A stretch of 64,000 nt of DNA from Elusimicrobia bacterium CG1_02_56_21 (lineage in GTDB: Bacteria; Elusimicrobiota; Elusimicrobia; Elusimicrobiales; UBA9959): contig MNUR01000129.1 in the NCBI GenBank assembly GCA_001871115.1, positions 3,869 to 67,868 on the forward strand, read 5' to 3'. The notes beneath the pieces are model-generated. The model was not told where the DNA came from, ran no database searches, and saw only the letters and a program-made list of their open reading frames with translations. Of the stretch, positions 48,689-49,417 are shown one piece after another. Position numbers and translations under genes: made by a program. Within the stretch, counting starts at the first letter, position 1; every line of letters starts with the position of its first letter.

Positions 48689-48979
48689 TCAGTGGCAGCA
48701 GTCTCCGCCGTGAGAGGGCAAACCGGTTACCAGGATCTCGCCGTCTTTATCGCAGTCAATGACCGCGTTAACGAGTTCCGCAACCGCGTCGTTGTGAACA
48801 TAAACCTTCAGGTCCTTTATTACTACTTCCCGGTCACCGTTCTCCGGCTTTGGAGTTATGTCCATGGCTATTGAGGGGCCGCAGCAGCCTTCCGTCATGA
48901 AAATACGCAGGCAGGGCCCTTTGTTTACTTCTTTAATGATCTTCTTGAGTTTTTCTACAGCCGCGTCTTTGATTTCCAT
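48689..48979 (-). CDS. HesB/IscA-fold small protein with two vicinal Cys pairs
   Basis: 96 aa. LRIFMTEGCCGPSIAMD resembles the short HesB-like (seleno)protein family G(G/U)CCGPS core. An additional C-terminal GGDCCH is present. Confidence 0.5.
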   Translation of the reverse strand: MEIKDAAVEKLKKIIKEVNKGPCLRIFMTEGCCGPSIAMDITPKPENGDREVVIKDLKVYVHNDAVAELVNAVIDCDKDGEILVTGLPSHGGDCCH

Positions 48980-49030
48980 ATATTCTCCCCGGTATTTTTA
49001 TCTAAAAGAGTTGGGCGCTAATCCTGAAGT

Positions 49031-49417
49031 TCAGCAATTACAACCTATTACACAGACGCCTTTTTCGCGCAGCCCCAGCCTGGCTTCAAGGCGGGCTATG
49101 TCTTTGACGATCGGACCGCAGCACGGTTCCGGCTTGACCAGCTTGATTATGTATTCATTAAGCGGACCGGACCTCTCCGCAAGGGCGTACATAGCCCAGC
49201 GCCCCTGCTTCTCTTTACGTATCAGCCCCGCCGCGCACAGCGCGCCCAGGTAGCGTGAAACATTGTACTGGCTTTCGCCCAGGGCGTCCACAAGCTCGCA
49301 GACGCATAGTTCCCTCCCGGCATAAGCCAGCAGGGCCGCCGCCCGCAGGCGGTTGGGGTCAGCGAGCGCCTTAAGGGCTTTTACACAGGCTATAAAATCC
49401 GGCGAAGCTCTCTTCAT
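49031..49417 (-). CDS. arsR: ArsR/SmtB family metalloregulator with Cys-rich C-terminal extension
   Basis: ORF 49031..49552 trimmed to MKRASPDF (ATG 49417). wHTH with ELCVCELVDAL, plus C-terminal EPCCGPI and GVCVIGCNC. Confidence 0.85.
   Translation of the reverse strand: MKRASPDFIACVKALKALADPNRLRAAALLAYAGRELCVCELVDALGESQYNVSRYLGALCAAGLIRKEKQGRWAMYALAERSGPLNEYIIKLVKPEPCCGPIVKDIARLEARLGLREKGVCVIGCNC

Follow-up and report, generated by a model that had tools for sequence, protein, structure and literature searches.

The chaperone already known for ArsA is ArsD, a protein of thioredoxin-like fold whose As(III) sites are built from vicinal Cys pairs and which in E. coli uses As(GS)3 as donor. 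A second kind of small protein, of HesB type, is also encoded in ars operons: orf7 of the ars1 operon (arsRYCDAT-orf7-orf8) of Bacillus sp. CDB3 (PMC4562236, PMC5481582) and hesB of Exiguobacterium ars operons (PMC8779447) are in print, so that the HesB-like protein of the DNA considered here, for whose proposed role a sequence-only reading knew of no earlier description, has published precedents in its ars setting. A homologue on Bacillus cereus plasmid pBc10987 is annotated as BCE_A0155. Our search of the literature, as far as it is searchable, returned descriptive mentions alone and no functional test of ars-linked HesB-like proteins.

The window, a 64 kb stretch of DNA from Elusimicrobia bacterium CG1_02_56_21, carries an operon of tightly packed genes all on the (-) strand, in the order arsR-hesBL-arsC-acr3, with hgcAB diverging from it (Table 1). 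The gene for the 96-aa HesB-like protein, hesBL, lies 51 bp from arsR, and 13 bp separate its stop codon from arsC; the arsC stop and acr3 start overlap by 1 nt. The neighbours were identified by profile search: HgcA (405 bits against NF040863), HgcB (123 bits against NF040864), Acr3 (445 bits against TIGR00832, cutoff 282.8), ArsR (73 bits against NF033788) and ArsC (72.6 bits against Pfam LMWPc), the best NCBIfam match of the last being TIGR02691 (thioredoxin-coupled arsenate reductase) at 128 bits, below its cutoff of 174.3. As the sequence-only reading had stated, arsD and arsA are absent: three ArsD and three ArsA queries gave no tblastn match anywhere in the 64 kb at E≤1e-3, nor did ArsM, ArsP and ArsB queries at the same threshold.

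Table 1. Features of the ars-hgc region (positions in the window).
Feature	Position	Strand	Details
Acr3 arsenite efflux permease	47177..48256	-	TIGR00832
ArsC arsenate reductase, LMW-PTP type	48256..48675	-	Pfam LMWPc
hesBL, 96-aa HesB-like ORF	48689..48979	-	ORF and translation
C94-C95-H96 codons of hesBL	48692-48700	-	
GCCGPS codons of hesBL	48872-48889	-	
ArsR/SmtB repressor, first gene of the operon	49031..49417	-	128 aa, from MKRASPDF; NF033788, HTH_5
Putative ArsR-controlled promoter and operator	49418..49453	-	function inferred
Inverted repeat ATATGC-N8-GCATAT	49418-49437		
-10-like box TATAAT	49425-49430		
-35-like box TTGACT	49448-49453		
Candidate ArsR target sequence			ATATGCATATAATAGCATAT
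hgcA	49498-50493	+	NF040863; divergent from arsR
hgcB	50490-50783	+	NF040864; divergent from arsR
C-terminal C96-C97 codons of hgcB	50775-50780	+	

Upstream of arsR stand two promoter-like boxes separated by a 17-bp spacer, the -10 box being placed inside the inverted repeat. A 20-bp element, ATATGC[A/G]TATAATAGCATAT, directly 5' of arsR, is essentially invariant in the window and in all 17 hgcAB-linked Elusimicrobia loci, the exceptions being a single change in one locus (L023, TATACT) and a copy clipped at the extraction edge in another (L024); the remainder of the arsR/hgcA intergenic region diverges among those loci. Inverted repeat and promoter together make a putative ArsR-controlled operator of the ars operon. 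Judged from its orientation, its tight spacing and the conserved operator-like element upstream of arsR, hesBL of the window is a dedicated component of the ars operon.

The AF2 model of the HesB-like protein (pLDDT 82.7, falling below 50 in the C-terminal tail) matches IscA (1x0g, 1r94, 1s98) and SufA (2d2a) in a Foldseek search of the PDB, with TM scores of 0.72-0.76 and E values of 1e-6 to 1e-4. By this model the protein has the IscA/SufA, or A-type-carrier, fold, in agreement with the sequence-only reading. Of the two families named there for a profile search, Fe-S_biosyn (PF01521) gives 27.5 bits, barely above its gathering score of 26.3, and the HesB-like selenoprotein family gives scores below the family cutoffs, as it does for distant CC...CC relatives. 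The protein is indeed under the cutoff of every NCBIfam model, at 37.2 against 58.8 for TIGR00049 and far under for the IscA, SufA and ErpA equivalog models. Naming the subfamily through NCBIfam was therefore abandoned: no model exceeds its cutoff for the query, and distant members occasionally pass the generic TIGR00049 and nothing else. Its motifs, a G-C-C-G-P-S loop followed by a C-terminus rich in Cys, define the subfamily to which the protein belongs. Housekeeping carriers that also bear GCCGP are separated from the ars-linked sequences in an NJ tree; the topology agrees with monophyly of all ars-linked sequences, but bootstrap values are below 50% and we do not claim it. One sequence, P0042, was considered as a Rosetta-stone fusion of an ArsD N-terminus to a HesB-like protein and rejected as such, since it has about 48 ArsD residues and its HesB-like part is without the first helix; a deletion in frame, or an artefact of assembly or gene calling, is the likelier origin, and the sequence lends weak support to adjacency of arsD and hesBL alone.

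The cysteine motifs listed in the sequence-only reading are all present in the translations. The HesB-like protein has TEGCCGPSI (C32-C33) and a terminal GGDCCH (C94-C95), plus C23 and C76; ArsR has ELCVCEL (C38, C40) and, in a C-terminal extension, EPCCGPI (C99-C100) and the terminal GVCVIGCNC (C122, C126, C128); and HgcB ends in CGCGGDSSCC. Four of the five CC dipeptides of the window's longer ORFs (four from 64 non-overlapping ORFs, plus that of HgcB, read from its translation) fall in the 2.1-kb stretch that encodes these three proteins. The CC pairs nevertheless exceed chance only weakly on composition: when each protein is shuffled, at least the observed number turns up with a probability of 0.03 (HesB-like protein), 0.46 (ArsR) and 0.84 (HgcB). 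Since the excess is nominally significant for the HesB-like protein alone, we used conservation as the main evidence. GCCGPS is kept in 30/31 locus copies and 15/15 close homologues, which upholds the first pair as conserved and so passes the conservation check that the sequence-only reading had set, and the terminal CC of HgcB is kept in 17/17 orthologues. ArsR orthologues have PCC in 15 of 17 cases, including loci that lack hgcAB (L009, L010), and ELCVCEL without exception; what comes next to CC differs among them (GP, GT, GL, S, P, A, K, D, R). Occurrence of CCGP in two unrelated folds, thought unlikely to be coincidence, thus loses its force: what ArsR orthologues keep is CC, not GP.

In alignment, C32 coincides with the canonical first Cys of IscA and C33 is the extra one; the C-terminal C-G-C is represented by C-C in the window protein and is retained by most Elusimicrobia orthologues. 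The proteins of most phyla end in CC-COOH, those of most Elusimicrobia in CxC-G-H (...CGxxCGCGH) and the window protein in CCH, a vicinal form that is rare among Elusimicrobia orthologues. BCE_A0155 reads GAGCCGPSYG...SNCC, and a Priestia homologue also ends in CC-COOH. All three canonical A-type-carrier Cys positions appear to be retained, with C-G-C in most Elusimicrobia orthologues, an arrangement compatible with Fe-S binding and to that extent adverse to As(III) carriage. The CC at the first site was discarded as a diagnostic of ars linkage, GCCGP being found in non-ars contexts in P0213, P0216 and P0220; the pair is compatible with an ordinary carrier role in these carriers of housekeeping context, which again speaks against an As(III) carrier.

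Sixty distinct loci were retrieved by sequence pattern alone and ars genes were scored within 3 kb; a specific ars gene lies within that distance of hesBL in 58 of them, in a sample that leaves out GCCGPSYG-type housekeeping carriers because the scan used the narrower alignment A3. Linkage of hesBL to ars genes is strongly supported, and the ars-neighbourhood enrichment on which the sequence-only reading had staked itself is borne out. The loci span at least six phyla, the groups including Elusimicrobiota, Nitrospirota, Nitrospinota, Bacteroidota, Bacillota and Hyphomicrobiales. Homologues at 30-40% identity (Nitrospirota, Nitrospinota, Bacteroidota (Paludibacter), Hyphomicrobiales, Bacillota) are found within arsRDA/arsC/arsM/acr3/arsB operons, and five distant short-tail members inspected one by one (P0168, P0172, P0192, P0203, P0264) are all inside ars operons. 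The immediate downstream neighbour is arsC in 42/60 loci, and acr3 is within 3 kb in 43/60. Among the Elusimicrobia, hesBL is followed by arsC in 26/26 species loci, in 25 as the very next gene and in L012 with arsA intervening, and Acr3 was detected in 25. In other lineages hesBL is flanked by arsD and arsA, or comes next after arsA; in Exiguobacterium the stop and start codons of hesBL and arsA overlap. At least one of arsD and arsA accompanies hesBL in 23/60 loci (arsD in 17), and of the 21 loci with arsA, 19 have hesBL right beside it, so the notion that the HesB-like protein is an ArsD analogue substituting for missing ArsD and ArsA does not survive. Its regular place in the ars operons of many phyla makes it probable that the HesB-like protein deals with arsenite and not with mercury or housekeeping Fe-S clusters.

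The reading that we prefer, and hold with moderate confidence, is that the HesB-like protein is a carrier or buffer that binds As(III). Fold, motif conservation, operon membership and synteny across phyla are shown here; that As(III) is bound, in what ratio, and from and to which partners it moves are what we infer. In this subfamily the first canonical Cys ligand has become a vicinal pair in the G-C-C-G-P-S hairpin loop, and this pair and the C-terminal thiols could together supply three or four thiolates to one site, intra-subunit or spanning an IscA-like dimer, that captures As(III). The protein would hold cytosolic As(III) coming from ArsC or from uptake and pass it to the exporter, Acr3, or to ArsA where present. 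Like the two cysteines at the C-terminus of MerA, or the paired cysteines of ArsD, the flexible Cys tail might take up the metalloid and hand it on by ligand exchange; ArsD sequences in hesBL-bearing loci show MCCxxGxCGP. A Sec at the C32 position, as in TIGR01911 relatives, is more in keeping with a nucleophile or a metalloid ligand than with a ligand of an Fe-S cluster. To our knowledge none of ArsR, ArsC, ArsD, ArsA, Acr3 and ArsM requires an Fe-S cluster.

The main rival, serious though unlikely in our estimate, is an A-type Fe-S carrier induced with the ars operon and sustaining Fe-S delivery or repair under arsenic stress; As(III) would poison the three-Cys sites of the housekeeping IscA, SufA and ErpA, or damage exposed clusters. 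Fold and PF01521 match are those of such a carrier, the three ligand positions appear to be kept, most Elusimicrobia have C-G-C-G-H tails, and GCCGP proteins related to this one occur in housekeeping contexts. A relative of P0080 is located with HypC and HypD, and in ars locus L033 arsA is followed by genes for a SufC-like ABC ATPase, a SUFBD_core protein and a ferredoxin; such Suf-like neighbours, however, were seen in a single lineage, and core ars operons encode no Fe-S client protein. Dimethylarsenate induces a canonical hesB in SAR11 (PMC6426599), that gene belonging to a different subfamily. The added thiols should raise affinity for As(III), whereas a carrier proof against arsenic would need it lowered, and relatives have Sec in place of C32; moreover, tight and often translationally coupled adjacency to arsA, arsD and arsC would be puzzling in a general repair factor.

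A thiol-disulfide relay, which the sequence-only reading had named as a possibility and in which the Cys pairs would alternate between dithiol and disulfide to re-reduce thioredoxin-coupled ArsC or keep the thiols of ArsR, ArsD or ArsA reduced, strikes us as improbable. It would account for arsC directly downstream in 42/60 loci, LMW-PTP ArsC being generally known to require an external disulfide reductant, and it could draw on the selenocysteine variants, which are typical of redox proteins, and on the recurrence of Thioredoxin_3 (thioredoxin-like) and DsbD_TM genes in the vicinity. Against this, there are arsD-hesBL-arsA modules with no arsC nearby (L027, L033, L056, L059, L064), the HesB-like protein is without a CxxC motif, disulfides between adjacent cysteines are strained and seldom seen, no oxidoreductase of IscA/HesB fold is known, and no dedicated reductase is linked to hesBL.

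As to mercury, hgcAB lies within 3 kb of hesBL in 17/60 loci, every one of them from Elusimicrobia (17/26 there), and near none of the non-Elusimicrobia homologue loci examined. An ArsM-like methyltransferase gene replaces hgcAB in seven sister Elusimicrobia loci, and nine of the 26 keep hesBL-arsC without hgcAB, eight of these with acr3. hgcAB is a neighbour of hesBL, not its conserved partner, and the idea that the protein feeds HgcB finds no support in these counts. That it is a chaperone delivering Hg(II) to the two cysteines at the HgcB C-terminus is scarcely credible: adjacency in the window and 17/26 Elusimicrobia species loci, the liking of Hg(II) too for dithiolate sites, and a mercury-derivative crystal of IscA (1r94) are outweighed by the homologues outside Elusimicrobia and the nine loci within it that do without hgcAB, and by the position of hesBL on the arsR strand, in the arsR operon rather than that of hgcAB.

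If the HesB-like protein is an As(III) carrier or buffer, its co-occurrence with ArsD, already the chaperone of ArsA, means that a second chaperone needs a distinct job. Possible, though we would sooner doubt it than rely on it, is that the ars-linked GCCGPS...CC proteins form, on the A-type-carrier scaffold, a second class of As(III) metallochaperone, independent of fold, and donate As(III) to ArsA/ArsD and Acr3. Such a protein-thiol donor might matter most in glutathione-poor lineages bearing hesBL; as far as we know, Bacillota, Bacteroidota, Elusimicrobiota and Nitrospirota are mostly without glutathione and hence unable to make As(GS)3. A corollary for the Elusimicrobia is that hgcAB and arsM would be alternatives on one ArsR-controlled cassette, which would tie HgcAB to arsenic physiology; that hgcAB shares a promoter region with an ArsR-regulated ars cassette, and has an ArsM-like gene in its place in sister loci, bears on what HgcAB evolved to do. 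More generally, hesBL is a small gene conserved in well-studied ars operons over at least six phyla, Bacillus cereus-group plasmids included. Should its product bind As(III), arsenic detoxification would gain a new chaperone or buffer step and an Fe-S carrier fold would have been re-used for metalloid trafficking; should it be an Fe-S carrier, Fe-S biogenesis would be a primary arsenite target that cells specifically defend.

Compared with known systems, the protein resembles the MerA C-terminal vicinal Cys pair (PMC12874090) and the HgcB terminal CC only in mechanism and by analogy: there a soft metal is picked up by a flexible C-terminal CC and delivered to Cys ligands at an internal site, but in other proteins, with another metal and in enzymatic rather than carrier roles. 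With the HesB-like selenoproteins (TIGR01911/NF038090) it shares the fold family, and their Sec motif U-x-G-P (PMC13188914) lines up with C32-C33-G34-P35; it has Cys instead of Sec, and scores 27.9 against a cutoff of 66.35 and 31.0 against 85. The A-type carriers (IscA/SufA/ErpA/HesB, PF01521) are alike in fold and length class, in the canonical first Cys in a Gly-rich hairpin and in Cys residues in the flexible C-terminal tail; their GGCSGF loop, however, has become G-C-C-G-P-S, a short Cys/Gly/His tail or CC-COOH stands where they have C-G-C-G-x-S-F, their NPNA segment is missing, and the protein is encoded in ars operons rather than in isc, suf or nif clusters. ArsD (PF06953) is likewise a small soluble ars-operon protein that has adjacent Cys residues in pairs and a C-G-P turn, encoded next to arsA, and the hand-off of As(III) by ligand exchange proposed here would be similar; but the HesB-like protein has no PF06953 match in Pfam, its predicted fold is IscA-like, it co-occurs with ArsD (17/60 loci), and it is also found in operons without arsA, the window's among them. 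The last comparison is with CDB3 orf7, BCE_A0155 and Exiguobacterium hesB. They are 31-40% identical to the window protein, the Elusimicrobia tail is of CxC/His type, and the operons of CDB3, pBc10987 and Exiguobacterium have both arsD and arsA, where that of the window has neither and faces hgcAB; with their GCCGP loop, CC-COOH end and ars-operon setting they belong to the same subfamily.

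The HesB-like protein of 96 aa encoded by hesBL, with residues C32-C33 in a loop and C94-C95 at its C-terminus, is a new member of a widespread, functionally uncharacterised ars-operon family on the fold of A-type carriers (the IscA/SufA/ErpA/HesB Fe-S cluster carriers, PF01521). The protein, which matches a hypothetical protein from Elusimicrobia bacterium CG1_02_56_21 at 100% identity, is encoded in the closely packed series arsR, hesBL, arsC, acr3 (spacings of 51 bp and 13 bp, then a 1-nt overlap), and arsR diverges from hgcA across 80 bp; tblastn across the 64-kb window found no ArsD, ArsA, ArsM, ArsP or ArsB gene. 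Beyond hgcB lie a short ORF and a membrane-protein gene. In many Elusimicrobia loci the transporter and binding-protein genes that flank acr3 keep their synteny with the ars cassette, and they may be linked to phosphate/arsenate discrimination.

Features of the window in and around the ars and hgc genes
Feature	Coordinates	Strand or orientation	Basis or remark
Organophosphate:Pi antiporter-like MFS transporter and PhnD-like periplasmic binding protein	44854-47130		flank acr3
acr3	48256-47177	-	ORF listing and profile searches
arsC, LMW-PTP type	48675-48256	-	best NCBIfam match TIGR02691 (thioredoxin-coupled model), below cutoff
hesBL	48979-48689	-	ORF listing and profile searches
arsR	49417-49031	-	ORF listing and profile searches
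20-bp element	49418-49437	minus-strand sense	directly upstream of arsR
20-bp element plus TTGAC(A/T) box	49418-49453		
hgcA	49498-50493	divergent from arsR	
hgcB	50490-50783	divergent from arsR	after hgcA
Hydrophobic ORF, 71 aa	50799-51014		between hgcB and the membrane-protein gene
Multi-pass membrane protein, 280 aa	51105-51947	+	no Pfam/NCBIfam match

All the cysteine motifs quoted in the sequence-only reading were found in the translations: EGCCGPS and a terminal GGDCCH in the HesB-like protein; ELCVCEL, EPCCGPI and a terminal GVCVIGCNC in ArsR; and a terminal CGCGGDSSCC in HgcB. Against shuffled sequences, P is 0.03 for the HesB-like protein with its two CC pairs; the CC counts of ArsR (0.46) and HgcB (0.84) are no more than one would expect of proteins so rich in Cys. 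Amino-acid composition by itself says little about such pairs, and conservation is what counts. The first pair of the HesB-like protein is indeed conserved, GCCGPS being unchanged in all 15 close homologues and found in 30/31 locus copies; the C-terminal vicinal CCH is unusual, most Elusimicrobia orthologues ending in CGxxCGCGH. HgcB keeps its terminal CC in 17/17 orthologues, and ArsR keeps ELCVCEL in 17/17 and 'PCC' in 15/17, its C-terminal CC occurring also in two loci without hgcAB (L009, L010). The residues that follow this ArsR pair differ among orthologues (GP, GT, GL, S, P, A, K, D, R), so the CCGP shared by the two folds is coincidental as far as GP is concerned and loses the meaning earlier attached to it.

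The evidence that decides is genomic context. A scan by sequence pattern, with each GTDB species represented by one genome, yielded 32 loci; in each of the 26 from Elusimicrobia arsC comes after hesBL, as the very next gene in 25 and with arsA in between in L012, and Acr3 is found in 25 of them. Nitrospirota and Hyphomicrobiales homologues (30-37% identity) adjoin acr3. Nine distant members were inspected one by one, a tenth (P0215) being kept with the negative controls. Five lie in the orders arsR-acr3-usp-arsD-hesBL-arsA (P0172), arsP-trx-arsR-arsC-acr3-arsD-hesBL-arsA (P0168, Nitrospinota), hesBL-arsR-arsC-arsM-acr3 (P0192), arsD-orf-arsA-hesBL-arsC-arsM-acr3 (P0203, Paludibacter) and arsR-arsD-arsA-hesBL-arsB (P0264, Exiguobacterium); P0080 is in an arsP / ArsD-fusion / HypCD cluster, and P0213, P0216 and P0220 have longer, carrier-like tails and housekeeping contexts. 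Among metagenome loci found with the pattern GCCGPS[LIM][AQ][ML], ars genes are adjacent in 38/39. Once the sets were pooled and duplicates removed, 58 of the 60 distinct loci proved to carry a specific ars gene on the same strand no more than 3 kb away, which bears out emphatically the expected enrichment near ars genes. Within that distance ArsC is present in 44 of the 60, Acr3 in 43, ArsA in 21, ArsD and HgcA in 17 each and ArsM in 14; the next gene downstream of hesBL is arsC in 42, and hesBL directly adjoins arsA in 19 of the 21 arsA-bearing loci.

Homologues are also carried by 62 plasmids, nearly all of Bacillota. That of Bacillus cereus pBc10987, BCE_A0155 ('HesB-like domain protein'; GAGCCGPSYG...GGSNCC-COOH), ends the series arsR-acr3-arsC-arsD-arsA, and a Priestia plasmid homologue terminates in NSCC-COOH. 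Several plasmid copies (H1-H5, H9, H13, H14; e.g. L085:6001-6285) are labelled 'adhesin' in RefSeq/GenBank, a name ill suited to a cytosolic IscA-fold protein of 94 aa.

The proposal that the protein stands in for ArsD or ArsA fails, since it occurs together with them in 23 of the 60 loci, where its gene as a rule lies between arsD and arsA or has its translation coupled to the end of arsA. Bacteroidota-type ars operons have a conserved ORF of ~104 aa (…ELFTIPQAACDSGKANW…) between arsD and arsA (L039:2884-3189, L055:3875-4189, L063:3859-4173, L070:3856-4170, L082:3856-4170), with no Pfam family and only a faint ArsD-like match (E=0.077). In homologue P0042 (120 aa) the first ~48 ArsD residues (MKVEIYDPPMCCSSGICGPSLDP...) are joined to a HesB-like part lacking the N-terminal helix; instead of a true fusion, this may be the product of a deletion or an artefact of assembly. 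A Nitrospirota ars cluster (L029) holds two HesB-like paralogues, a truncated arsD fragment and a 60-aa Zn_ribbon_8 (FmdB-like) protein ending ...GGCC-COOH (9666-9848). DUF169, a small ferredoxin, FmdE and a TauE permease recur downstream of several HesB-like/ars genes (L029:12198-15032, L086:5563-8297, L088:4441-7204), and in L086 the HesB-like gene is flanked by HypC, HypD and a CMD-ArsD fusion.

What all these contexts share is As(III) and an exporter, not ArsC, ArsA, ArsD, ArsM or HgcAB individually. The best-supported reading, to which we give about as much belief as doubt, is that the protein is an As(III)-binding carrier or buffer. The C32/C33 loop pair and the flexible Cys-rich C-terminus would form a three- or four-thiolate site, modelled on IscA, whose three Cys converge on one pocket, and As(III) would be exchanged with ArsC as source and Acr3 or ArsA as sinks. 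Four points count towards this reading. Sec replaces C32 in relatives, and we know of no ars partner that needs an Fe-S cluster. ArsD binds As(III) through vicinal Cys pairs, and the ArsD genes of hesBL loci show MCCxxGxCGP. In MerA a C-terminal CC tail is a known hand-off device (PMC12874090). The terminal CC of HgcB probably serves the same purpose.

The main rival, that the protein is a true Fe-S carrier whose expression goes with arsenic stress, is in our judgement rather unlikely; it draws on the retained ligand triad, on housekeeping relatives with GCCGP and on Suf-like genes after arsA in one locus. There (L033:7117-10294, and L034) arsD-hesBL-arsA directly precedes a SufC-like ABC ATPase, a SUFBD_core protein, two no-family proteins, a small ferredoxin and a DsbD_TM membrane protein, so that the ars cluster seems to include a minimal Suf-like set. 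A disulfide relay serving ArsC is improbable, being weakened by arsD-hesBL-arsA modules without arsC. That the protein is an Hg chaperone we scarcely credit, for synteny contradicts it. Nor is the protein tied to hgcAB, which occurs in just 17 of the 60 loci, every one of them from Elusimicrobia. Two parts of the sequence-only reading, ArsD substitution and the feeding of HgcB, should be dropped.

Upstream of hesBL-arsC-acr3 the 26 Elusimicrobia loci have a slot that is filled by divergent hgcBA and arsR in 17 and by an ArsM-like SAM methyltransferase in seven, never by both (raw counts, ignoring phylogeny); the two with neither read arsR-arsD-hesBL-arsA (L012) and arsR-arsP-trx-hesBL (L004). 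The arsR/hgcA spacer is 23-99 bp long among loci and divergent in sequence outside a 20-bp element, ATATGC[A/G]TATAATAGCATAT, which is essentially invariant in the window and 17/17 hgcAB-linked loci (one single change, one clipped by extraction). It is an inverted repeat, ATATGC-N8-GCATAT, enclosing a TATAAT box, with TTGAC(A/T) 17 bp upstream of TATAAT in the window and eight loci. The element is probably the ArsR operator and promoter, and could control both divergent transcription units.

That hgcAB is linked to arsR and ars genes was published earlier by McDaniel et al. 2020 (PMC7438021) and by Gionfriddo et al. 2022 (bioRxiv 10.1101/2022.10.17.512643), neither paper mentioning the HesB-like gene. 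Such a gene has been noted in an ars operon, as orf7 of Bacillus sp. CDB3 ars1 (PMC4562236, PMC5481582), and Exiguobacterium hesB is co-induced with arsR, arsD and arsA (PMC8779447); the literature searched contained no functional test of an ars-operon HesB-like protein.

The Pfam Fe-S_biosyn match is marginal (27.5 vs 26.3 bits), and the protein falls below every cutoff of the NCBIfam carrier and HesB-selenoprotein models. Its AlphaFold2 model (pLDDT 82.7; six C-terminal residues below 50) matches IscA/SufA crystal structures at TM 0.72-0.76. Among 1.84 billion representatives an exhaustive profile search gave only 640 matches at E<=1e-3 and 40 at E<=1e-10; many top matches are of ~95 aa with the same GCCGPS loop and a C-terminus ...[S/G]CC(G)-COOH. 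In an NJ tree ars-linked sequences form three subclades (bootstrap 100, 98 and 97%) that cluster apart from housekeeping GCCGP and canonical CGCGxSF carriers, their union having <50% support. Profile-to-PDB alignment places C32 at the canonical first Cys ligand of A-type carriers, from which the protein differs in the added C33 and in Pro for the usual Phe (GGCSGF to GCCGPS). The U-x-G-P motif published for HesB-like selenoproteins (PMC13188914) coincides with its C32-C33-G-P.
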